This document shows positions 10,720 to 45,360 of a DNA stretch of 64,000 nucleotides, in pieces. Source of the DNA: Shigella phage Henu11; sequence record OM953433; one strand, 5' to 3'. The position numbers and the translations under genes were made by a program. Every line of letters starts with the position of its first letter. Positions within the stretch are counted from its first letter, which is position 1. The notes under the pieces are model-generated. The model had not been told where the DNA came from, did no database searches, and was given only the letters and a program-made list of their open reading frames with translations.

Positions 10720-11580
10720 ATGTCTAAAGTTGTTAAAATGAAAGCTCCGGTAGAGAAGTACAATGGTCAAGAACGTGAGACTCTTCGTTACCTGCTGAAA
10801 GATGTTTGGTTCTATTACCTGAACACTATTCCACGTCCTCAAAAGGGTAAATCTGTGGATAAGCATTTTCCGGGCAAAGATTGTAACTACAGCGTTTCAA
10901 TTCTGGCAAAAGATGGTAACAAGCTCTTTAAAGAGTTCACCAAGTCTAAAAAGAGTCCTGAAGGTTGGGATAAAGTTACTACAGAGGCTGTTGATGCAGA
11001 TGACTTCGAAGAGAAGTTTGGTTGTGAGCCTCCGTTTGAAGCTGACACCTATCACATCCTGAAGGTTAGCCGTTCAGCAGCATATAAAGACGGTGCTGTG
11101 TGGTCAGCAAAACAGAGTTTCCCTGTAATGCTGGTTGAAGAAATCAACGGTAAGCGTGTTGCAGTTAAGCAGCCTATGAAGAAAATCAAGGCAGCAAAAT
11201 CTGATAAGCACGATGATGATAAGACTTACGATGTAATTCATCCAGATATTGCAGTTGGTAACGGTTCATTTGGTAGTGTGATTCTGGCGACTCACTTCTA
11301 CACATTTGAAGGTAACGTTCTGACCAAGCCAATTCAGGAACAATTTATCATTGATACTCTGGTTCCTTACACTGGTGGTACTGGTGGTGCTACTGAGACT
11401 GAACTGGATGAAGATGAACTGGCAATGCTTGGTCTTGCAGGTGTTGAAGACAACGGTGAAATCACTGAAGAAGATGCAAAAGATTCTGGTGATGAAGGTA
11501 AAGGTGGTGATGACGATGACGACGACCTGCCAAACCCAGATGATGACGACGAAGATGATTTCGAAACTGACGACGAGTAA
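10720..11580 (+). CDS. putative ssDNA-binding protein with acidic C-terminal tail
   Basis: 286 aa; C-terminus DDDDDDLPNPDDDDEDDFETDDE; sits between helicase and exonuclease as in T7-type replication modules. Confidence 0.45.
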   Translation: MSKVVKMKAPVEKYNGQERETLRYLLKDVWFYYLNTIPRPQKGKSVDKHFPGKDCNYSVSILAKDGNKLFKEFTKSKKSPEGWDKVTTEAVDADDFEEKFGCEPPFEADTYHILKVSRSAAYKDGAVWSAKQSFPVMLVEEINGKRVAVKQPMKKIKAAKSDKHDDDKTYDVIHPDIAVGNGSFGSVILATHFYTFEGNVLTKPIQEQFIIDTLVPYTGGTGGATETELDEDELAMLGLAGVEDNGEITEEDAKDSGDEGKGGDDDDDDLPNPDDDDEDDFETDDE

Positions 11581-32536: not shown

Positions 32537-32561
32537 GGGCTGCTTCGGCAGCCTTTTTTAT
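32537..32561 (+). terminator. rho-independent terminator
   Basis: GGGGCTGC-TTCG-GCAGCC plus TTTTTT. Confidence 0.7.
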
Positions 32562-32620
32562 TTGAAAAATGTGCAGGTTAGTGTATAATTATCTGCATGT
32601 TTAACAAAATAGGAGTGCAA

Positions 32621-33169
32621 ATGAAGAAATTTGTTTTAGGTTTGTGCTTATTCTTTACAGCACATTTAGCTACAGCGTCTGACTGTCCAGAGCTTACAAT
32701 CAGCCAGAAAGTTAATATGTTAAAAGCATATAACTATGGCGAAGGACAGATGGGAAAAGGTTGGGGAATCCCTTTAGCAGCTATAGCCTTACAAGAGTCA
32801 CAATTAGGTGTCATGTTAGAAAATAAAAAGACTCATGATTATGGTGTTTTCCAAAATCACTTGAAGACTGTTGTAAAGCGTAACAAGGTATCTCCAAAGG
32901 TTGCTAAGAAGAAGCTAGTAAGTGACTTCCATTACTCAGCGAAAGAGGCTCATAAGGAGCTATTATTCTGGACTAAGGTTCATGGTAACCCAGATGGAAA
33001 GTACTCTATGAAGCGTGTCCTAGCTTCTTATAATGCTGGTTACAAATACAAGATTCCAAAGGCTAGACAATACTCTCAAGATGTGTACAATAACATGAAA
33101 CTGCTTGCTCAATGTGAGTTTGCAACAAACATTAAAAAGGTAAAATATGAGCGAATCAAAACAATTTGA
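32621..33169 (+). CDS. secreted protein with lytic-transglycosylase-like motif
   Basis: signal peptide MKKFVLGLCLFFTAHLATA; AIALQESQLG resembles SLT-domain catalytic motif; start at ATG with AGGAG RBS. Confidence 0.45.
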   Translation: MKKFVLGLCLFFTAHLATASDCPELTISQKVNMLKAYNYGEGQMGKGWGIPLAAIALQESQLGVMLENKKTHDYGVFQNHLKTVVKRNKVSPKVAKKKLVSDFHYSAKEAHKELLFWTKVHGNPDGKYSMKRVLASYNAGYKYKIPKARQYSQDVYNNMKLLAQCEFATNIKKVKYERIKTI

Positions 33170-35694: not shown

Positions 35695-35887
35695 TTTCTG
35701 CACTAAGTGTTCTGTTGAGATGTTTGGAAAAGATACAGGAGACTTAAAAGGTCTCTTTACAAAGGCAGAATTTAAAGCTGGTTCAGCAATGCCAGTAATC
35801 TGTGAAGGTTGCGGTGCTTTATGGGTAGACCATGAAGGTAACCGAGTTAAACCATCTGAAGATAACGAACGTTGGGAGCATTACTAA
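35687..35887 (+). CDS. small zinc-ribbon protein
   Basis: 66 aa; CTKC...CEGC cysteine pairs. Confidence 0.4.
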   Translation: MADFCTKCSVEMFGKDTGDLKGLFTKAEFKAGSAMPVICEGCGALWVDHEGNRVKPSEDNERWEHY

Positions 35888-35888
35888 T

Positions 35889-36683
35889 ATGGGTATCGTA
35901 AAAATTATTAAAGGTGATATCTTTAAAGATTTTGATGGTAAGAAGTTTGATATCATTGGTCACGGTTGTAACTGCATGAACTTGATGCCAGCAGGTATCG
36001 CAGCAACAATTGCTAAACGCTACCCAAAAGCTTATGAAACTGACGCTGAAGTTTATGCTACAGTAGGTGGTGAAAATCATAACCCTAAGCATCTAATGCT
36101 TGGTAACATCTCTGTAGCACGTTTTAAGCAGGGTCGAATTGCTAACCTTTACACTCAGGTTATCACTGGCAAAGATGCACGATACAACGCCTTAGAAGCA
36201 GCTTTACAGCGTCTTAACAACTACTGTAAAGTTAATCAACTTAAGAAAGTTGGGCTTCCGATGATTGGTGCAGGGATTGGTGGTCTTGATAGCATGGCTG
36301 TACTGTCCATTATCAACCAGACTATGAAGGATGTTGACGTTTATATGTATGTCTATGAAGATAAGATGTACAGTCAGTTGACTAGTCCTGTTACTGGTTG
36401 GGAGAACTTCAGTGAGCCTCAATACTTTGATGGTGTTGCTGTGGTAGGCAAGGATAAAGTTACCCTCAAGGTGAAGCGTAATGGCAAGGTACACACCAGT
36501 TACCCTCCGGTTGAGAAGTACAATCGAAGTAACGCTCAAGTTACCCACCCGTTACAAGGCCACCACCACAGAGCGGTAACGTTTGGCGATGATGCAAGTG
36601 TATATATCAATGCGACTACAGAAGAGTTTGCAGAAGATTATATCACACATGAAAACGTAAACTATGTTGAAGCACGTAACTAA
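35889..36683 (+). CDS. macro-domain (ADP-ribose binding/processing) protein
   Basis: about 264 aa from ATG after upstream stop; IIKGDIF, FDIIGHGCNCMNLMPAGIA and LPMIGAGIGGLD resemble macro-domain glycine-rich motifs; C-terminal extension unknown. Confidence 0.6.
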   Translation: MGIVKIIKGDIFKDFDGKKFDIIGHGCNCMNLMPAGIAATIAKRYPKAYETDAEVYATVGGENHNPKHLMLGNISVARFKQGRIANLYTQVITGKDARYNALEAALQRLNNYCKVNQLKKVGLPMIGAGIGGLDSMAVLSIINQTMKDVDVYMYVYEDKMYSQLTSPVTGWENFSEPQYFDGVAVVGKDKVTLKVKRNGKVHTSYPPVEKYNRSNAQVTHPLQGHHHRAVTFGDDASVYINATTEEFAEDYITHENVNYVEARN

Positions 36684-36710
36684 TAAGTTACCCAGATAAA
36701 CATAGACAAG

Positions 36711-36756
36711 CCCTCCAAAGTTTGAGTTTAAAATCTCAGGTAAGGAGGGCTTTTTC
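36711..36756 (+). terminator. rho-independent terminator
   Basis: CCCTCC...GGAGGG long hairpin plus TTTTT. Confidence 0.55.
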
Positions 36757-36940
36757 ATTTTAAATTTGTGCAGGTATAGTTGCATAGAACTCTGGACAGA
36801 TTTCTTTAGCTGAACTCCAAAGGGAAAATTCATTTCAAATTTGTGCAGGTTTAGACTCCAAAGGGGTTTTTCATTTTCAATCTGTGCAGATGCAGTTGGA
36901 CTCCAAAGGGAAAATTCATTTTCAGTTTGTGCAGGTAGGT
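36749..36940. repeat. four direct ~40-bp repeats (CTCCAAAGGG..TTCATTT..TTTGTGCAGGT)
   Basis: copies near 36749, 36824, 36856, 36900; TGTGCAGGT also at 32566. Confidence 0.7.
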
Positions 36941-36956
36941 AGCTGTAGGAAACCAG

Positions 36957-36988
36957 CCCCACCATCCCCTCTTACTCCCCTTCCTCCC
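36957..36988 (-). other. G-quadruplex / i-motif-forming tract
   Basis: four C-runs (CCCC,CCCC,CCCC,CCC) with 5-7 nt loops on plus strand, unusual in AT-rich genome. Confidence 0.4.
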
Positions 36989-37108
36989 AAAAGTCAAGAT
37001 AAAAATTTGTAGAGAACTCAAAAATAATTCTTGACTAGATTCCTGTTTTAGTGTATCCGCATACGTGCGTTCTATTCACGAAACATCAAAAATATTTTTA
37101 AAAATTTT

Positions 37109-37137
37109 GTTGACTTCATAAATCCAGTCTTATAGTA
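37109..37137 (+). promoter_or_regulatory. sigma70-like promoter with AT-rich upstream element, upstream of small-gene array
   Basis: TTGACT, about 17 bp, TAGTAT; preceded by AAAAATATTTTTAAAAATTTT. Confidence 0.45.
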
Positions 37138-37187
37138 TTTGCATCAACGGGAAACATCCCAACAATCCTAAACTGGAGAATCTGAAA

Positions 37188-37394
37188 ATGTTATATCAAC
37201 GTGAGTTAATGATTGTTGACAACAACAAAACAAATAAACGTCGTTTCTATATGCTAATTTGTGATGTTTGGCAACGTATCTCAGAAAAAGATTTTGATAA
37301 ATATGTTAATACGTCAATCAGGTCAGATTGTTACTTGACAAATCATACAAGACAGTTTACAAGACATACAGCAATTTATTATTACAACGTTTAA
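37188..37394 (+). CDS. small array protein
   Basis: 68 aa; preceded by conserved leader. Confidence 0.45.
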   Translation: MLYQRELMIVDNNKTNKRRFYMLICDVWQRISEKDFDKYVNTSIRSDCYLTNHTRQFTRHTAIYYYNV

Positions 37395-37406
37395 GAAGGC
37401 TTGACA

Positions 37407-37568
37407 ATGATTAAAGAAAACGATGTAATACAATACAAAGATTTAGACGGATACCTAAAAATTGGTAAAGTCTTCTATCTCTATAAATCTGCTATGGGTA
37501 ATAATTGTGTAGCCCTTACAAATGGCGATAAAATAACCATGAAAGATTTTATAAAAATTATTGCATAA
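37407..37568 (+). CDS. small array protein (53 aa)
   Basis: short ORF not in track; followed by type-B hairpin. Confidence 0.3.
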   Translation: MIKENDVIQYKDLDGYLKIGKVFYLYKSAMGNNCVALTNGDKITMKDFIKIIA

Positions 37569-37652
37569 AGTACTTTACATGGGGTTTAAAAGCTAGTATC
37601 TTAAGCCCCAGATAAAGAGCTTTACCAACAATCCTAAACTGGAGAATCTGAA

Positions 37653-38033
37653 ATGAAATATCGTGCGCCTAAATTTATCAACAAAGAAAACTTTCGTAGT
37701 ATCTTAGAGGAAACTATGAAAGAAAACTTCAAAGGAAAAATAATTGTTGTTCACGCTTACAATTTTAAGTATGATGTTAATGGTAACCGTATCAACCACT
37801 ACAAAGCTACTATGCTTGACGGTACATTATCCGGTGAAAAAGCTATCATAAATGCTATTGCAGGACGTGGTAAAACTGTGATACGATGCGAAAAAAGACG
37901 CTATCAAGGCGGAAAATATGGATATGAAGATGCAATGTATCATCTTGATAAAATGGGGTATGATGTAGAGAAAGCTGGAGTATCCCAAACTATTGGTAGT
38001 GACGGCTACGTTACAGTTTTCAAAATTAATTAA
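37653..38033 (+). CDS. small array protein
   Basis: 126 aa; conserved leader. Confidence 0.5.
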   Translation: MKYRAPKFINKENFRSILEETMKENFKGKIIVVHAYNFKYDVNGNRINHYKATMLDGTLSGEKAIINAIAGRGKTVIRCEKRRYQGGKYGYEDAMYHLDKMGYDVEKAGVSQTIGSDGYVTVFKIN

Positions 38034-38123
38034 ATAAAGTCCTTTACATGGGGTTTATAGTTAGATAAGATAAGCCCCAGATAAAGAGCTTTACCAACAA
38101 TCAACCTAAACTGGAGTATCAAA

Positions 38124-38381
38124 ATGGCTACTATCAAAAACATCATTGTATCTGCAAAATCTCGTGATGACGCTCGCGCAACTGCTAAAAAACTAAATGG
38201 TAAAGTGGTTGACAACGGAAAAGAATCTGCTGTAAGATGGGGCGTGAAATGTGATAAGGAAATTACTTTAAAACGTAGTTCCTATGACCTTTTCAAAGGT
38301 GTAAAAGCAATCGGTAGAACTAACGTCTACACGAAGAAAGGTTATAAAATGCACTTATCATTAACTGACAATTTAATCTGA
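38124..38381 (+). CDS. small array protein
   Basis: 85 aa; conserved leader. Confidence 0.5.
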   Translation: MATIKNIIVSAKSRDDARATAKKLNGKVVDNGKESAVRWGVKCDKEITLKRSSYDLFKGVKAIGRTNVYTKKGYKMHLSLTDNLI

Positions 38382-38473
38382 TAAAGTGCTTTACATGGGG
38401 TTTATAAGTTGCTAGTATAAGCCCCAGATAAAGAGCTTTACTAACCAATAGTCCTAAACTGGAGAATCTTAAT

Positions 38474-38986
38474 ATGTCATACGTTGAAGCTACCTTTGAA
38501 GTTCAAAAAGAAAAATTCACTATCATCTATGAAGCTGTTAATATTTGTGAAGCATCCCATTGTGTGGAAAATTGGAAGTTTACCGATGAGCACAAAGGCG
38601 GGGTTACAATCAAACTTAAAAATCCAGAGCGTAACGGGTACAAATATGCAATTCCACAGCATTACAGCCTTTCTCAATTGATGAGTGATTATGCTAAACA
38701 AGGCCGCGAAAATCCATCTATAGAGGCTTACAAGAGCTTACAAGATGAATTACAAAGAGATTTAGAGGCTAACAGCTATGTACTATTTGCAAAGGTAGAA
38801 GATAAAGAAGGTAATACGGTATTAAATAGCTTTTCACTTGCTTATGGTTTCGATTGGTGTTATCTTGACGGGGAAGATTTAGATTCACGATTAGAAGAGG
38901 AAGTGTCGAACTCCGATGGAGAATCTGAAGTAATGGAACGTTTGGAAGACTTGAAAGATTCTGTTATGAATATCTTTAATATCTAA
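38474..38986 (+). CDS. small array protein (acidic C-terminus)
   Basis: 170 aa; conserved leader. Confidence 0.5.
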   Translation: MSYVEATFEVQKEKFTIIYEAVNICEASHCVENWKFTDEHKGGVTIKLKNPERNGYKYAIPQHYSLSQLMSDYAKQGRENPSIEAYKSLQDELQRDLEANSYVLFAKVEDKEGNTVLNSFSLAYGFDWCYLDGEDLDSRLEEEVSNSDGESEVMERLEDLKDSVMNIFNI

Positions 38987-39069
38987 AGTGCTTTACATGG
39001 GGCTATCAAGTTGATAAGATAGCCCCAGATAAAGAGCTTTACCAACAATCCTAAACTGGAGAATCTAAA

Positions 39070-39366
39070 ATGTTTATTGCCGCAAACGTTAGAACTAAAT
39101 TAAGCCAGCTATTAAGCAATATTCAATTCATTGAATCCATGCGCCGTACCTCTGAAGCCGTAGAATGGTATCACGGAAAGATTGACAAAAGGGAAGTTGT
39201 GATTTGTGTATGGAGCTTTTGTAAAGAATACAGAAAGCCGTTGCTTCAGATAGATATCTATGATAATGCTAATAAATCAGCTATTAAATCCACAAAAGAT
39301 ATGGTAGATTCTTATGAAATTAGTCACACTGGTAAACTATTCCACAAAGGTAAAAACAAATGCTAA
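39070..39366 (+). CDS. small array protein
   Basis: 98 aa; conserved leader. Confidence 0.5.
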   Translation: MFIAANVRTKLSQLLSNIQFIESMRRTSEAVEWYHGKIDKREVVICVWSFCKEYRKPLLQIDIYDNANKSAIKSTKDMVDSYEISHTGKLFHKGKNKC

Positions 39367-39707
39367 TCACATACACTGCAATTTTTATCTCTATTGTGGC
39401 GCTCTATAAAGCCTTGCAAGCGCACAGTATAGCTAATAAGGCACTTACAAGGGATTTAAAAATAAATCTTGTACGGGGCTTTTTAGAGCGTTTGAGCTTA
39501 GAACAATTGAAACGTTTAGAGATGAGCTTTCGATTCAAAGCAGAGACATACCGGATTGATAACATCCTAGATGGTGATTTTAAATTAATCAGTGATTATG
39601 ACATACTTCTTGAGTCAATTCAAGATATAAACCTGAAAGATTATTATATTGTAATAGCACAAGAAATTAATAAAAAAGAGCTTGCAATGCAGAATCAAAA
39701 CAAGTAA
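39360..39707 (+). CDS. small array protein (N-terminal TM; C-terminus ..AMQNQNK encoded by cassette)
   Basis: 115 aa. Confidence 0.45.
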   Translation: MLITYTAIFISIVALYKALQAHSIANKALTRDLKINLVRGFLERLSLEQLKRLEMSFRFKAETYRIDNILDGDFKLISDYDILLESIQDINLKDYYIVIAQEINKKELAMQNQNK

Positions 39708-39765
39708 AGTATTCATCAACGGGGCAAGATAGAAGCCCCAACAATCCTAAACTGGAGAATCTAAA

Positions 39766-40038
39766 ATGTATACTACTAATGACGGTCGCACTTTGAACGT
39801 AACTTTAAAACACTATGTAGACGGTGTATTAAACTTTGAAGAGTTAAGAGCAGAACAGCAACTATTAGATTGGCAAGTAGCAGGTTTACAAAAAACCGCT
39901 ACAGGATATGGAAAGAAAATTCCTACATCTTGGAAAGTTCGATACCTTGGAAAGTTACGCAGAATTTATCAAGATGTTTATAGTAATAGCGGTGTAAGTT
40001 ACATTATTGTTAGTGGTAAAAAGTTGTATTTAGTCTAA
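39766..40038 (+). CDS. small array protein
   Basis: 90 aa; conserved leader. Confidence 0.5.
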   Translation: MYTTNDGRTLNVTLKHYVDGVLNFEELRAEQQLLDWQVAGLQKTATGYGKKIPTSWKVRYLGKLRRIYQDVYSNSGVSYIIVSGKKLYLV

Positions 40039-40127
40039 TAAATTGCTTTACATGGGGTTATCAAGTTGATAAGATAGCCCCAGATAAAGAGATTTACCAA
40101 CAATCAACCTAAACTGGAGTATCAAAA

Positions 40128-40535
40128 ATGACTAATGTTAATCACAAAGAAGTTGCAATTTTGAAAGCACGTTTGACCATTAACCGCATCAACATTGTAA
40201 CATCAGCAGCGCCAGACGAAACACTGCATAATATCATCGGCAAAATTCAGGGCGTAGTAGTAGACACAAAACAGCTTAAAGAGTCCTTGCAAGATGTAGC
40301 AGCAGGGGCTATAATTGACGGTGCTCAATATGAGATGAAGGAAATGCTGTCAAAGTCAAAAGTAATGAATAAAGAACTTGACTTGAAAATGTTTAGATTT
40401 GCTGTTAAAGTGTGGCTATGTGTTGATTTTGATGCAAACTTTGCAATTGCTGATTTCTTTGCAACATGGTTACAGCGTAACTTACCGGTCGAAGTTTTCC
40501 GTGAAATCTGCGATGCAATTTATTCAGAGATTTGA
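40128..40535 (+). CDS. small array protein
   Basis: 135 aa; conserved leader. Confidence 0.5.
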   Translation: MTNVNHKEVAILKARLTINRINIVTSAAPDETLHNIIGKIQGVVVDTKQLKESLQDVAAGAIIDGAQYEMKEMLSKSKVMNKELDLKMFRFAVKVWLCVDFDANFAIADFFATWLQRNLPVEVFREICDAIYSEI

Positions 40536-40620
40536 TTGACATTGCAAAAGCATAGTAGTAGAGTACTCATCAACGGGGCAAGTTAGAAGCCCCAACAATC
40601 CTAAACTGGAGAATCTGAAA

Positions 40621-40869
40621 ATGTTTAATATGTTGAATATCCCTGACACTTGCCGACTCTTAACACAATTTGATAACCTTGGTAAGCCGTTTTTATATCA
40701 TATGCCAGATAACACTGCAAAAACTTACAGTTACATTGTAAACCGTTTTACGGCTTATGGTTCAAAGTATGGCTATAATGTCAAGACTCAAAAGGTGACT
40801 TTGTTCACAAGTATTGAAGAGTTACCAACTGTTGCCGTTAAACTAATCTTTACAAAGAAAACTAAATAA
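40621..40869 (+). CDS. small array protein
   Basis: 82 aa; conserved leader. Confidence 0.5.
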   Translation: MFNMLNIPDTCRLLTQFDNLGKPFLYHMPDNTAKTYSYIVNRFTAYGSKYGYNVKTQKVTLFTSIEELPTVAVKLIFTKKTK

Positions 40870-40953
40870 AGTCCTTTACATGGGGTTTAAAAGCTAGTAT
40901 ATTAAGCCCCAGATAAAGAGCTTTACCAACAATCCTAAACTGGAGAATCTAAA

Positions 40954-41511
40954 ATGAAATGCTTCCACGGTACTACACAAGAAAACTTCGTAAATCTTAT
41001 TAATGGCGGTGATAAACCATCAGGAGCTTGGAATTGCTCTGATATGGATGGATGTTTTTATGTCTACCCTGTTAGCAAGTTCTATGATGTAGAAAATCTG
41101 GATGACGAACAAATCATAGATGAAGGTATTAGAAACGCGCTTGATAGCGCAAGCATTACAGCAGCCTATCAAATGAAGTCACAAAAACTTGTCATCTTGG
41201 AACTAGATATTCCAGAAGATGATTTACAAGATGACTGGAGTTGTGAGAACATGAGCGACGTCGCAAGCTTTACAGAATATTTCGATAAAGAATGGATTAA
41301 AAAGGTTTACACAACTGAATTTAATGCTATGTATGCGCCTTTCTTTGTCCCTAACCTGAATAATAGGAACTTGGGTTATATACCGGATGAGTTACACAAC
41401 ATTGCGGCAATAGTTCAACGTAGTGATGAGATGAATAATGTTTATATTGATATCTTCGAGACTATGCAATGTAACGTAGCAGAAACGGCTATAAACGACT
41501 TAACAGCATAA
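40954..41511 (+). CDS. small array protein
   Basis: 185 aa; conserved leader. Confidence 0.5.
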   Translation: MKCFHGTTQENFVNLINGGDKPSGAWNCSDMDGCFYVYPVSKFYDVENLDDEQIIDEGIRNALDSASITAAYQMKSQKLVILELDIPEDDLQDDWSCENMSDVASFTEYFDKEWIKKVYTTEFNAMYAPFFVPNLNNRNLGYIPDELHNIAAIVQRSDEMNNVYIDIFETMQCNVAETAINDLTA

Positions 41512-41574
41512 ACGATAGAATCATACCAGTTCACTAGAAAAGCCCCGCACAGGGGCTTACAAGAGGCTTAAAAG

Positions 41575-41805
41575 ATGCTTACAACAATCTATCTTATCCT
41601 ATCTATCTGCAATGGTTCACAATGTGACTTTAAAGGTCTGGAAGAGTTTACAGGTAGCGAAAATAATGCTATTGTTGCCTGTCAGATAGCAAGGCAAGAC
41701 TACCCAACATCGGATGATATCCAATGTTACTATAAATCAGAAGATGATGAAGGGATTTACTTTGATAGTGTGAATGGTGAATATGAGATTCTTATAGAAA
41801 AGTAG
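41575..41805 (+). CDS. small protein with hydrophobic N-terminus
   Basis: 76 aa; lacks conserved leader. Confidence 0.4.
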   Translation: MLTTIYLILSICNGSQCDFKGLEEFTGSENNAIVACQIARQDYPTSDDIQCYYKSEDDEGIYFDSVNGEYEILIEK

Positions 41806-41895
41806 TTGACACTAAAAACGCAAACAAGTAAAGTATTCATCAACGGGAAGGAAACTTCCCCACTAAACAAAATTCCTAAACTGGAGAATCTGAAA

Positions 41896-42237
41896 ATGGC
41901 CTATGTAACAATTATCACCGATAAAGAAAATTCGTCATGGTCTACCCAAGTTAACGACAAAATGACACCTATGCAGTGTCTCAAATACTTTGAGCAGTGG
42001 AACAGGGGAGAAGATGTAAGCCCCTTTCAAGTGATGCAGATTGTACATGTTGACAATGAAGGGAATAAAACTACCCTTAACACTGAGTACTATACTACAC
42101 GTTTCGAGACTCGCAAATCAGCTATGCAGGGTTTAAGAGAAAAGGGATATAGTCACATTGCCGCGCTCATTTGGTCTGATTTGCTTAAAAAACAGTCATT
42201 AACCTATGTTAAGCCAGAAAAAATCTTTATAAGCTAA
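41896..42237 (+). CDS. small array protein
   Basis: ORF 41806 trimmed to ATG directly after conserved leader. Confidence 0.5.
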   Translation: MAYVTIITDKENSSWSTQVNDKMTPMQCLKYFEQWNRGEDVSPFQVMQIVHVDNEGNKTTLNTEYYTTRFETRKSAMQGLREKGYSHIAALIWSDLLKKQSLTYVKPEKIFIS

Positions 42238-42432
42238 TCAACAACTTATAAAAATCTTTTGAAAAACTATTGACAATGCCCCTTGACAAGTGTAACTTTG
42301 TTCGAGGGGGTTTATCTAAAAGGATTCACTTAAAAGATTCTTTATAGATAAGCGTAAAAAGTACTTGCAAAGGTTTAATCATATCTATATAGTATCTTCA
42401 AAAGGCAACTTCCTAAACTGGAGAATCACAAA

Positions 42433-42573
42433 ATGTTAGATATCATTAAAAACCCTATCCTTTGCGGTATGATTGTTTCTGTTGTGTTGCCATTAGCAAT
42501 GCTCATCATTGGTGAAATCTCAGATAAACTTTTTGATAAAAAACTACTTGCAATACAGAATCAAAACAAGTAA
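42433..42573 (+). CDS. small membrane protein (46 aa; C-terminus ..AIQNQNK)
   Basis: not in track; conserved leader; hydrophobic core. Confidence 0.3.
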   Translation: MLDIIKNPILCGMIVSVVLPLAMLIIGEISDKLFDKKLLAIQNQNK

Positions 42574-42637
42574 AGTATTTATCAACGGGGAGGGAGACTT
42601 CCCCACTAAACAAAATTCCTAAACTGGAGAATCTGAA

Positions 42638-43165
42638 ATGAACAAGTTCCAAGCAATTAATCATATCCGTTCCAATGCAGTAATGAGCAAGCCAGTAAAA
42701 GACACCTTCGAATTCCGCTGTAATGATAAGTTGTTTGCAGTCATTACAAAAGGGGAAGATAAAAAGTATTATGTACATCGCCAAAACGTTAAGTTAGTAA
42801 CAGCAGACAACTTTATGAAAGCTGTTGCAACAATCCTACCGGATTTTATGGAACTGGTAGCAGAACTTTGTGAACACTGCATCAAGTCATCAAAGGCAGA
42901 ATTAAACCGCTTTAAAATGGCTTATGAGCGTTCTATCAAGTCCCATAACATGTATATCATGCCATTGGCTTTTGGTACTCAGGCAATGGGAACAGGTTGT
43001 CATCCTTTCCACCTTTACGATGTAGAAAGCATTTACCTTAGTGAGTCAAAAGATATTGATTTTAGTTTACAGTTAGGACAAGCATTAAATGATATGATTA
43101 AATTACACGAAAAATCCGTAAAAGATATGCAAAAAGAGCTTGACGAAATCATCGTAAATCTATAA
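42638..43165 (+). CDS. small array protein
   Basis: 175 aa; conserved leader. Confidence 0.5.
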   Translation: MNKFQAINHIRSNAVMSKPVKDTFEFRCNDKLFAVITKGEDKKYYVHRQNVKLVTADNFMKAVATILPDFMELVAELCEHCIKSSKAELNRFKMAYERSIKSHNMYIMPLAFGTQAMGTGCHPFHLYDVESIYLSESKDIDFSLQLGQALNDMIKLHEKSVKDMQKELDEIIVNL

Positions 43166-43225
43166 AGTACTTATCAACGGGGAGGGAATGACCTTCCCCA
43201 ACAATCCTAAACTGGAGACTAGAAA

Positions 43226-43489
43226 ATGAATAATCAAGAAATCACTATCCTGTTACAAATCGGTACTGACAAAGAAGATATCCAACTTTGCAAACGTATT
43301 GAAAGTGATTGGTTCAACGGTGAAATCATCGCAGAATCTTATGAAGTAGTCGGATTCATGAATGGTGAAGTTGTAAGCCATTTCGGTTTAACTAAATCTG
43401 AAGCCGTTGCAAAGTATGACGTTTTATCTTGTGAGATTCTTACAAAATACAATGAAAAAAGACTTGCAACTTATGCAGCAATGAATTAA
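43226..43489 (+). CDS. small array protein
   Basis: 87 aa; conserved leader. Confidence 0.5.
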   Translation: MNNQEITILLQIGTDKEDIQLCKRIESDWFNGEIIAESYEVVGFMNGEVVSHFGLTKSEAVAKYDVLSCEILTKYNEKRLATYAAMN

Positions 43490-43555
43490 TATTACTTTCA
43501 ACGGGGAGGGAGACTTCCCCACTAAAACAAAATTCCTAAACTGGAGAATCTGAAA

Positions 43556-43807
43556 ATGGCTACTATCCGCGCAACTGTTAACAATTTTGGCTTCCATGTA
43601 TTAGATGTTAAATTTGATATGGTTGGAACTGGTGATGCTTTCGGTATGATTGAAATGTGTCTGAAGGCAACTATTCAGGACTACAATCCATCGGAAACAT
43701 TCTGGAAAGAAACTAAACAGGAAGTTTTAAAGGATGGTGTATCTTCTTACTATTGGGGTGATTCTCTTATCACGCTTTACTACCAAAAATTTGGTGTGAT
43801 TAACTAA
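43556..43807 (+). CDS. small array protein
   Basis: 83 aa; conserved leader; last gene before convergence region. Confidence 0.5.
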   Translation: MATIRATVNNFGFHVLDVKFDMVGTGDAFGMIEMCLKATIQDYNPSETFWKETKQEVLKDGVSSYYWGDSLITLYYQKFGVIN

Positions 43808-43871: not shown

Positions 43872-44295
43872 ACGTCTTCCTAGAATCTTACCAGACATTT
43901 AGAACAATAACTCTATAGCTTACTCTATATCCTCTTATCAAATCAACTTAAATATAAGCCCATAACCCGAAAGGGAAGGGCAATCCCTAAAACGCTCTAT
44001 AACGCTCTATACGGGCTTATCATCTCATCTTAAGCAATCATATTAACCTACTCTTAAAAGCCCTTTATAGAGCTTTCTAGAGCCTTAAAAGAATCTTATA
44101 AGGGTATAAGCTTTATTATCTCGTTAGTATCTTGTGAATGGTTAAACAGGGGCTTGAAAGTTACTTAATAATGTGTTATGGGGAACTAAAAAGAGCTTAA
44201 AAGTAACGTAAAAGATGCTTAAAAGTAACGTAAAAGTTAGCCCCCTTTACATTCTCTTAACAAAATCTTAACAAATGCAACATAGTTATGCTTAT

Positions 44296-44356
44296 TAGAG
44301 ACTTGTTAGCCCCTTGTTAAATCCTTGTTAGAGGTATGTTAAGAGCTTGTTAGACT
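44296..44356. repeat. five 11-bp phased repeats (cTTGTTAg)
   Basis: TTGTTA cores at about 44304, 44315, 44326, 44337, 44348; 11-bp spacing. Confidence 0.75.
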
Positions 44357-44545
44357 CTTTGAAGTCCCTGTATAAGCCCCTAGAAAGCCCTATAAAGAGC
44401 TATACAGGCAATTGGGCTATAGTTACTATGGAGAACCTTAGAAATGGCTGTATAGAGCTATACAGGGCTTTTAAGAGGGCTTTTAAGAGAATCACTGAGA
44501 GAGGGAAGGGAACTATAGACCAAGAGATAGTGACCATGTTAATAG

Positions 44546-44762
44546 CTTGTTAAAAAGGTTTAGAACTTGTTAGCATCTTGTTAATTATCTTAACAAAATA
44601 ACTCTTAAGATTTAACTATTTAGCAACTTATAAGCAACTTGTTAGACTCTTGTTAGTAATGTTACAGACTTGTTAAGCTCTTGTTAGTTCTGTTAAGAGA
44701 CTGTTAAGGACTTTGAAGAGATGTTAAGAGCTTGAGAGAGTTGTTAAGAGATTGTTAATGAT
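44546..44762. repeat. array of about 15 10/11-bp phased repeats (nnTGTTAAGnn), some inverted
   Basis: densest run 44638-44760 with copies roughly every 11 bp. Confidence 0.75.
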
Positions 44763-45010
44763 ATTTTAAGATTTTGCAAAGGGGATGTTACAGGGCTGTT
44801 AAGGGCTACCAAGCAGATATACACCCTAGACAGATATTTTTCAGTTCCTTCAAAGAACCTAAAAAGTGACCTACCTAGTCTATTTTATAAAAATTTTATA
44901 GAACTGAATAACTATCTATACACTATCTAGTATAAAACAGGTAATAACAGGCTTATAAGATACCTTGTTAGTACCGTGTTAGACCTTGTAGGATAAGCCT
45001 TTACAGGGAA

Positions 45011-45280
45011 TACCTGTTTAGTGTTATATAACAGTCTATATAGAGGCTTAGTTGACCCTAGTGAACCATCTGTAGAGAGTACTCTCTGTGACATAGAGAT
45101 TAAGATGGATATAGGGGCTTCTAAGGGGCTATGAAGAGACTAGGAAGGTGATTATATAGGTTTGGAAGAGGGCTTGTTAGAGAGCTTTGTAGAGGGCTAT
45201 TTAGAAGGGGCTATATAGTTTCACTAGATAGAGACTAAGAGGCTATATAGATACTATATAATACTATATAGAGAGTATGC
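45011..45280. repeat. cluster of palindromic CTATATAG octamers
   Basis: copies near 45011, 45216, 45246, 45259, 45270; related CTATACAG/GTATAGAG copies at 44395-44470. Confidence 0.6.
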
Positions 45281-45360
45281 TTAGATAGGTTGTTTAGAAG
45301 GTCTAGATATTTTATCACATATCATGGTGACCCAAGATGAACGGAGTGAATCCAAATTTT

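Follow-up and report, generated by a model that had tools for sequence, protein, structure and literature searches.

The DNA between the rIIA-rIIB-lysis-macro operon and the early small-gene array of Felix-O1-like phages is a non-coding control region, laid out as the operon terminator, three or four ~35-bp units in the same orientation, a pyrimidine-rich tract and back-to-back -35 boxes of the sigma-70 type. Its repeat array is a real, deeply conserved cluster of cis elements of a familiar kind (a regulatory repeat array with divergent promoters), and at the entry to the early-gene array no other non-coding DNA is conserved as strongly as this region. We propose, with a probability of about 0.4, that the array may consist of DNA sites for a probably phage-encoded protein that controls transcription at the boundary between the operon and the early array. 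An earlier note on this DNA had suggested either a regulator-binding array or a structural switch; the binding array is the alternative that fits the data best, and the structural switch fared poorly.

Locus and gene setting

The window, that is, the whole 64,000-nucleotide stretch of Shigella phage Henu11 that was analysed (record OM953433), is from a Mooglevirus phage (Felix-O1-like, Ounavirinae). Over positions 36000-38000, identity is 99% with Shigella phage Henu12 and 97-98% with the Mooglevirus phages Sf13-Sf19 and Citrobacter phage KMM2, and 217 Felix-O1-like records match this interval. With gene names transferred from the annotation of phage Sf18, the plus-strand genes upstream of the array are rIIA, rIIB, a lysozyme-like gene, polynucleotide kinase, spanins, several unknowns and a macro-domain gene. 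Downstream of the array follow small genes that belong to PHROG families without known function. The repeats and the C-rich tract fill the 504-nt gap between the macro-domain gene and the small-gene array, the two borders of which are as follows.

35832-36683, plus strand: macro-domain "phosphatase" gene (Sf18 annotation)
37163-37394, plus strand: conserved leader CAATCCTAAACTGGAGAATCTGAAAATG and first early gene (68 aa, phrog_5293)

According to the genome paper of Felix O1, the timing of gene expression in these phages is unexplained, and Felix-O1-like phages encode no recognised polymerase modifier (PMC3185647). The repeats are mentioned neither in that paper nor in the other literature searched, in which we also found no transcriptome or start-site map for this phage group. 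The article text of the Bas63 knockout screen gives no result for the repeat region.

Repeat units and the core motif

Four direct repeats had been described here, and they are real: they lie at 36733-36775, 36808-36850, 36849-36891 and 36894-36936, with 70-88% identity to the reference copy, and Tandem Repeats Finder run on the window reports 36814-36935 (period 45, score 138). All four had been said to end in TTTGTGCAGGT, which holds for three of them (36765, 36840 and 36926); the third unit ends in TCTGTGCAGAT. We therefore refer to a redefined motif, the bipartite core TCATTT-N7-GTGCAG, which is present in all four units on one strand. It is preceded by a run of A4-5 or T5 and, when units are aligned across relatives, by fixed T and G positions farther upstream. 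A second short motif lies between the first two units.

36741-36776, plus strand: unit R1 (T-type), core TCATTTTAAATTTGTGCAG at 36755-36773; the 5' part is the terminator 3' arm and T-tail
36780-36800: second short motif in two copies (TTGCATAGAAC; near-palindrome TCTGGACAGA), from the repeat family and alignments
36816-36851, plus strand: unit R2 (A-type), CTCCAAAGGGAAAAT followed by core TCATTTCAAATTTGTGCAG at 36830-36848
36857-36892, plus strand: unit R3 (T-type), CTCCAAAGGGGTTTT followed by core TCATTTTCAATCTGTGCAG at 36871-36889
36902-36937, plus strand: unit R4 (A-type), core TCATTTTCAGTTTGTGCAG at 36916-36934, then GTAGG

The start-to-start distances of the units are 75, 41 and 45 nt, so that R1 is set apart from the others; it is also fused to the T-tail of the macro-gene terminator. 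Within R2, CTCCAAAG is unchanged in 10 aligned relatives. R3 has the look of a weak hairpin-plus-T5 terminator, and the terminator scan lists a terminator-like site at 36853-36869. R4 is the best conserved of the four in the conservation track. The second short motif reads TCTGTAGAGAA, TCTATAGAG or TCTGTACAGA in relatives, and a third copy of it, TTTGTAGAGAAC, is found at 37006-37017.

Both in the window and in the complete 90-kb Sf18 genome, the core occurs in four exact copies, all within the array, and in two further copies with one mismatch. Shuffled sequence gives 0.3 matches at up to one mismatch and 0 exact ones. With its exact copies confined to the array in the complete genome of Sf18, the core is thus no promoter motif of genome-wide use. 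For TTTGTGCAGGT, a check of genome-wide positions relative to gene starts had been proposed, and it showed no regular placement before genes: the array locus and one other promoter are the only places that have it. Of the two one-mismatch matches, only the copy in the promoter after rIIB (see below) is credible; the other, at window position 93 on the minus strand, lies inside a probable small open reading frame and is probably a chance match.

Terminator and candidate divergent promoters

The repeats had been placed between a terminator and the promoter of the small-gene array. This location is correct, with a hairpin (36710-36750) plus T5 on one side and promoters at 37031-37059 and 37110-37138 on the other.

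36710-36755, plus strand: intrinsic terminator of the rII/lysis/macro-domain operon, stem GCCCTCC (36710-36716)/GGAGGGC (36744-36750), inner TGAG/CTCA helix, T5
36969-36997, minus strand: candidate leftward promoter Pminus, inferred; -35 TTGACT (36997 to 36992), 17-nt spacer, -10 TAAGAG (36974 to 36969)
36989-37036: most conserved block of the gap, perfect 8-bp inverted repeat AGTCAAGA (36992-36999)/TCTTGACT (37029-37036) with a 29-nt A/T-rich spacer
37031-37059, plus strand: candidate promoter P1, read from sequence; TTGACT-17-TATCCG, A-rich upstream element
37110-37138, plus strand: promoter P2 of the first early gene, TTGACT-17-TAGTAT, A/T-rich upstream element (37087-37109)

The terminator at R1 qualifies as Rho-independent, with a 7-bp GC stem and T5 after the stop codon of the macro gene. 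Its stem varies by clade with the pairing kept (AGCCTTTCTTA/TAAGGAGGGCT, GGCTGCC/GGCGGCC, AGCCTCC/GGGGGCT). It is annotated in phage Barry, and the scan detects its counterpart in Erwinia phage Coenus; the scan missed the hairpin in the window because its loop exceeds 8 nt.

The block at 36989-37036 is 89% identical between distant clades, compared with 40-54% at third codon positions, and its inverted repeat amounts to back-to-back -35 boxes. For P1, the -35 box and the upstream element show no change in 30 relatives, and the -10 element reads TA..(C/T)G in all clades; the promoter scan omits P1 because position 6 of its -10 element is not T. The -35 box of Pminus is likewise invariant across the 30 relatives. 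In the window its -10 element is without the final T and goes unlisted in the scan. In relatives that carry a replacement tract in place of the C-rich one, the leftward promoter, read by eye, is TTGACT-17-TAGCCT or TATTTT, and at the same place in Coenus it is TTGACG-18-TATACT, with a scan score of 10/12. A transcript from Pminus would cross the tract and the four units toward the R1 hairpin.

Conservation across relatives

We compared 30 distinct sequences from Felixounavirus, Mooglevirus and Suspvirus. At the 12 specified core positions, identity between the window's clade and distant clades is 95%, a figure that is somewhat inflated because the set was collected partly with motif-containing patterns. 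Between distant clades, identity falls to 55% in the N7 spacer, which still is A/T-rich in every case, to 52% in the DNA between units and to 40-54% at the third codon positions of the genes on either side. Among relatives derived from BLAST that span the array, all carry the cores. The spacing between R3 and R4 is 45 nt in 30/30 sequences, and at the other two spacings, nearly all sequences have 39/41 and 73-77 nt; a natural variant with three units is found in 6/30.

The arrangement extends beyond these genera. Erwinia phage Coenus, the rIIB of which is only 59% identical, has a syntenic 460-nt gap after its macro-domain homologue, and this gap holds a terminator, four tandem units of 37-39 nt, a C-rich block (CGCCCACCCTCCCCTCTACC) and a back-to-back promoter pair. 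The units take the form W5-TCATTTT-N6-GTGCAT-AG. Two Kolesnikvirus-like contigs are arranged as in Coenus, and a more distant 88-kb contig (proteins 37-65% identical) has 4-5 units after a macro-domain gene. The array region survives across genera whose proteins share only 40-60% identity. A motif-cluster search of IMG/VR returned mostly contigs of ~85-90 kb from this phage group; the three unrelated matches that we inspected were all tandem repeats, and two clearly fall within coding sequence. In 185,579 bacterial genomes, the double-core pattern gave six matches in unrelated taxa and none in an enterobacterial host, and from their titles and match layout these six look like chance tandem repeats. 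Judged by its conservation the element is functional, and it is placed exactly at the entry to the early array.

C-rich tract and G-quadruplex motif

The claim of a C-rich tract with four C-runs and a minus-strand G-quadruplex motif was confirmed, the minus strand reading GGGAGGAAGGGGAGTAAGAGGGGATGGTGGGG at 36957-36988.

36953-36988, minus strand: pyrimidine-rich tract with four C-runs on the plus strand; canonical G-quadruplex motif from 36988 to 36957

The quadruplex prediction that had been asked of this tract also came out positive. Taking as canonical a motif with four runs of at least 3 G, loops of 1-7 nt and a G4Hunter magnitude of at least 1.5, the tract has four runs of G3+, loops of 1-7 nt and a G4Hunter score of -2.16, the most extreme in the window. 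Even with loops relaxed to G3+N1-12, no other quadruplex motif turns up on the two strands of the window or anywhere in the complete Sf18 genome; just 14/200 shuffles hold a canonical motif (loops 1-7) at all. The quadruplex as a switch, on the other hand, did not stand up to comparison. It is not a conserved feature, because 14/30 distinct relatives carry in its stead an unrelated 52-nt tract of the same length, in which the plus strand is weakly G-rich (G4Hunter +1.52) and a four-run motif is absent, and because the Erwinia relatives have three C-runs only. The replacement tract might have arisen by a simple inversion of the C-tract; the sole support is a shared 10-mer, GGTGGGGCTG (P 0.005-0.5 depending on the pair), a weak hint of partial inversion.

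Non-B DNA could nevertheless be the main functional part of the region, as a quadruplex, i-motif or triplex acting as a switch that depends on supercoiling or transcription, or as an R-loop primer for replication. The uniqueness of the motif in the genome and its extreme score speak for this, as do the relatives that have the C-tract, in which the C-runs are kept and the loops vary. Felix O1 has a perfect homopyrimidine mirror repeat in the same slot (G4Hunter -2.64), the replacement tract is also G-rich, although on the opposite strand, and a leftward transcript would be purine-rich at the tract. Against these points stand the three C-runs of the Erwinia lineage, the missing four-run motif of the replacement tract and the identity of the tract between clades, ~50% as compared with 95% for the unit cores. 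We regard non-B DNA as a quite improbable centre of function; on the reading that we prefer, the C-rich tract would be an accessory element prone to such structures rather than an essential part.

The tract bears on another alternative as well, a transcription stop-and-insulation zone composed of a strong terminator at R1, a weak one at R3 and a C-rich, G-poor Rho-loading (rut) tract. Such a zone would shield the early promoters, so that transcription running on from the operon upstream neither enters nor occludes them, and the repeats would then be decayed duplicates of a terminator tail. The conserved hairpin plus T5 at R1, the terminator-like listing of R3 and the resemblance of the 5' parts of the units to a terminator 3' arm and tail are in line with this, and a 60-nt stretch at the tract has the largest C-over-G excess in the whole window. 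The tract is, however, ~45-55 nt long as opposed to ~70-80 nt for a rut site, its C-over-G excess is lost in the 14/30 relatives with the replacement tract, and base-for-base conservation is not normal for rut sites. Moreover, R2 and R4 carry an A-run instead of a T-run, the R3 hairpin is just 3 bp in most relatives, and the invariant GTGCAG downstream of the T-tails has no role in termination. Insulation as the purpose of the array therefore seems improbable to us.

A fifth core copy after rIIB

The earlier note had also placed a copy of the motif 40 bp upstream of the open reading frame at 32621. A site is indeed present there, but it agrees in only 9/11 bases (TGTGCAGGT at 32570-32578, 43 nt before the ATG). 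In terms of the redefined core, it is a copy with one mismatch, TTATTT-N7-GTGCAG at 32558-32576.

32538-32589, plus strand: rIIB terminator (GGCTGC-TTCG-GCAGCC plus T6), fifth core copy and promoter

This fifth copy lies between the -35 (TTGAAA, 32562-32567) and -10 (TATAAT, 32584-32589) elements of a sigma-70-type promoter that precedes the lysozyme-like/polynucleotide kinase/spanin/macro operon. It is kept in 7 relatives, with GTGTAG as the reading in one of them, whereas the adjoining spacer bases vary. At the corresponding place in Erwinia phage Coenus it is missing.

RNA and coding potential

The main rival to DNA sites is a minus-strand non-coding RNA of ~260 nt (~330 nt in the Erwinia phages) made from the predicted leftward promoter. 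Beginning within the G-rich tract or close to it, this RNA would present the four units as CUGCAC-N7-AAAUGA modules in single-stranded form, end at the R1 hairpin acting in both directions, and bind or titrate a protein or an RNA. The back-to-back -35 boxes that are invariant in the 30 relatives are consistent with it, and so are the leftward promoter scoring 10/12 in Coenus and the TAnnnT -10 elements of the replacement-tract relatives. Promoter, conserved body and hairpin exactly bracket the repeats. The structural tests of the region gave little signal: RNAalifold found 0 compensatory pairs on one strand and 2 on the other, and folding stability was not unusual (z-scores of -1.3 and -1.8). 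Sequence conservation without covariation would also suit an unstructured RNA of the sponge type. On the other side, the -10 element in the window and most relatives is TAAGAG, with the key final T missing, the U-tract after the hairpin is poor on the minus strand (TTGTCTATGTTTAT), and the fifth core copy at 32558 is without evident leftward transcription. An Rfam search of the region gave no credible match to a known RNA family. On balance we find a leftward RNA doubtful. If it were true, the repeats would be the body of an RNA gene and not DNA operators. It is unlikely, by our estimate, that such an RNA of ~260-330 nt with four modules is conserved across the Ounavirinae and represents a novel type of non-coding RNA in phages, serving to sponge a protein or RNA or to prime an R-loop.

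Pairing with ribosome-binding sites was considered as a further role at the RNA level. In the window, R4 is complementary at 15/18 positions to the first early gene's ribosome-binding region (-21.5 kcal/mol), and the pairing of the four units together with early-gene ribosome sites exceeds that of all 200 random genomic controls, with only R4 contributing. We rejected this antisense role, as the pairing is unremarkable in several relatives, among them Moogle, SUSP1 and ESh22, and in the Erwinia phages the units are kept while the leader differs.

A protein gene on the minus strand was likewise dismissed: the open reading frames range from 32 to 173 codons, with starts, frames and lengths that differ among relatives, and a minus-strand reading frame cannot continue through unit spacings of 41 or 37 nt. 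Such a "gene" over the array is annotated in Mordin (Mordin_126), Henu12 (Henu12_gp3), BPS17L1 and ESh22, so that several database records wrongly annotate the array as a gene.

Host factors, genome ends and replication

No consensus sites for the host factors DnaA, IHF, Fis, CRP or LexA were found in 36600-37200, and by eye the motif matched none of the sigma-54, MotA-box and EcoKI patterns. The ten neighbouring proteins contain no Pfam DNA-binding domain. A helix-turn-helix protein is annotated elsewhere in Sf18 (gp13).

Genome ends in this group can be located from phage UAB_Phi87, for which a 608-bp terminal repeat has been mapped with Bal31 (PMC4837284). The UAB_Phi87 record has an identical 542 bp at both ends, matching the mapped terminal repeat, and this sequence corresponds to about 59165-59707 of the window, in the tRNA cluster. 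The array as a genome end or packaging site was discarded, since this mapped repeat is ~22 kb away. A terminal repeat at window 44240-44850, suggested by the record starts of Ro111lw and KMM2, was abandoned as well, the mapped UAB_Phi87 repeat being elsewhere, and a boundary of T5-like first-step transfer fell together with it.

The array might also be imagined as a replication origin of the iteron type, in which the four repeats would bind an initiator beside A/T-rich DNA and promoters. There is a single cluster per genome with ~19-bp cores in one orientation, and an A/T-rich stretch (37087-37113) and strong promoters are near. However, the DnaA boxes are missing from 36600-37200, no initiator-like gene adjoins, and the A/T-rich stretch is the upstream element of P2, 150 nt from the units. 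The GC skew is without a replication-type change at the array, and a repeat-dense non-coding region of 1.3 kb at 44000-45300 is the more obvious candidate. We consider an iteron origin at the array highly improbable.

Proposed role as a regulator-binding array

According to the reading that we prefer, the units would be the DNA recognition sites of one sequence-specific protein, probably encoded by the phage. Bound side by side on the units, this protein would decide how RNA polymerase behaves at the boundary. It could stop transcription that runs on from the operon upstream as well as transcription that leaves the divergent promoter leftward, or else it could tune the rightward early promoter P1. 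The fifth site, in the promoter after rIIB, would be bound by this protein too in the enteric phages, most simply for repression.

Several observations favour DNA binding. The core has two parts, is conserved in sequence and leaves its A/T-rich spacer free, which is typical of a two-part protein contact; the spacing of the units is nearly fixed, their orientation single, and the core unique in the genome. Recognition at the level of DNA is further suggested by the fifth copy, which lies in a promoter spacer, a context that is not expected to be transcribed leftward. The lack of an RNA-structure signal and the conservation of the layout as far as the Erwinia phages and the more distant contig point in the same direction. 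As would be expected of an operator array, several copies of the motif lie in intergenic DNA near promoters and are conserved above the neutral level.

Other observations argue against DNA binding. None of the four clustered units overlaps the main early promoters: they are 95-280 bp upstream of P1 and would be part of the leftward transcript that is predicted. The Erwinia lineage lacks the fifth site. Further, a single cluster per genome is equally typical of an origin, an RNA gene or an operator.

Either way, the array offers a concrete handle for finding the missing regulator of these phages, or a new phage RNA. Felix-O1-like phages are widely used in typing, biocontrol and therapy directed at Salmonella and E. 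coli, and their engineering is under way, so that knowing which intergenic DNA must stay undisturbed is of practical use.

Comparison with known systems

In Neisseria pilE and in mitochondrial CSBII, a promoter-proximal G-quadruplex goes together with a small transcript of its own. As in these systems, the G-rich non-template strand here lies immediately downstream of a candidate promoter, so that transcription would expose it; in contrast to them, the phage subfamily has not kept the four-run motif throughout, and the promoter is a predicted one. Phage P1 encodes its c4 antisense RNA upstream of the ribosome site that this RNA masks, and on the same strand. The 15/18 complementarity of R4 in the window would resemble this, but it is not conserved in Felix-O1-like relatives.

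With iterons of the lambda type and of plasmids, the array shares 3-5 repeats of ~19-22 bp in the same orientation, with conserved spacing and unique in the genome; it differs from them in having no DnaA boxes, no adjoining initiator gene and no unwinding element directly beside the repeats. The one extra copy in a promoter recalls autoregulated Rep genes, although the operon behind that promoter is without a recognisable initiator.

In working principle, the closest known system is the p4 switch region of phage phi29. Its early/late switch uses four sites for the small DNA-binding protein p4 between the divergent promoters A2b/A2c and A3, and these sites are imperfect inverted repeats that overlap the promoters. 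Felix-O1-like units, by contrast, are asymmetric, of one orientation and located beside the promoters; we found no sequence relationship between the two, and we know of no p4-like protein in the Ounavirinae. What the two regions have in common is the arrangement: one cluster of four sites per genome, set in a short stretch of intergenic DNA along with divergent promoters and A/T tracts, at the boundary between temporal classes of genes.

Open reading frames and assembly breaks at the repeats

Across the repeats between the macro-domain gene and the early array, mechanical prediction yields the following minus-strand open reading frames:
36552-36965, minus strand, open reading frame across the repeats
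36851-37021, minus strand, open reading frame across the repeats

Public records describe such frames as hypothetical proteins (Mordin_126, Henu12_gp3, BPS17L1 gp012 and ESh22). We rejected them as genes because their reading frames are not conserved, and both are almost certainly spurious.

We observed that several independent assemblies of related phages are broken in or beside the C-tract that lies 3' of the last repeat unit (window 36935-36990), including the following:
ON210138, start of record
MN850610, start of record
L153, the sequence of a relative, end
L008, the sequence of another relative, break

The EC106 record ends at ...CTCTTACTCCCC, with the following ∼190 nt missing, and that of Andreotti ends 20 nt ahead of the tract and carries a fold-back chimera. 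Of the IMG/VR contigs, one stops within the C-tract, followed by Nextera adapter sequence, and a second shows a junction to host-like DNA ∼60 nt upstream. These breaks could result from misassembly driven by the repeats, from C/G runs that are poorly read through, or from a physical discontinuity.

Other repeat regions and virion DNA ends

A 1.3-kb noncoding region between convergent transcription units (window 44000-45300) is densely filled with CTTGTTAAGA/TGTTAAGAGA-type repeats 10 to 11 bp in length, which give ∼20 rows in the Tandem Repeats Finder output. The region is a candidate origin. The public records of Ro111lw and KMM2 start or end within it, and these boundaries are probably assembly breaks. 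Just left of the window start, in the complete relative Sf18 (10900-11110), degenerate GGTT/GGTCTGG repeats on the minus strand make up a G/T-rich intergenic stretch upstream of gp17.

In this group of phages, the ends of the virion DNA are probably located in the tRNA region:
55464-60863, plus strand, cluster of 26 tRNA genes

For the relative UAB_Phi87, the terminal direct repeat has been determined by experiment, and it corresponds to window ∼59165-59707, inside this cluster (tRNA-Gln/Leu/Gln genes). The inner boundary is approximate, since only record positions 1-201 were aligned directly (window 59707-59506).

Palindrome avoidance

GATC is absent from the window (1-64000), compared to ∼192 sites expected with both strands counted. 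The palindromic hexamers ATGCAT, CCATGG, CAGCTG and CACGTG are likewise missing there (15.6, 10, 8.5 and 6.2 expected, respectively). This is a very strong avoidance of restriction or Dam sites.

Leaders of the early-array genes

Almost all early-array genes are preceded by a near-identical leader, (C)AATCCTAAACTGGAGAATCT(G/A)AAAATG, present in 14 copies within window 37160-43600, for example:
37163-37190, leader copy
37630-37655, leader copy
40596-40623, leader copy

Most genes carrying the leader also have their own promoter (TTTACA/TTGACA-17-TAnnnT). A translational regulator or an RNase could target the leader. It is kept across Felixounavirus, Mooglevirus and Suspvirus, whereas the early-gene leader of Erwinia phages differs (CAACCCTTATAAAGGAAT...ATG).
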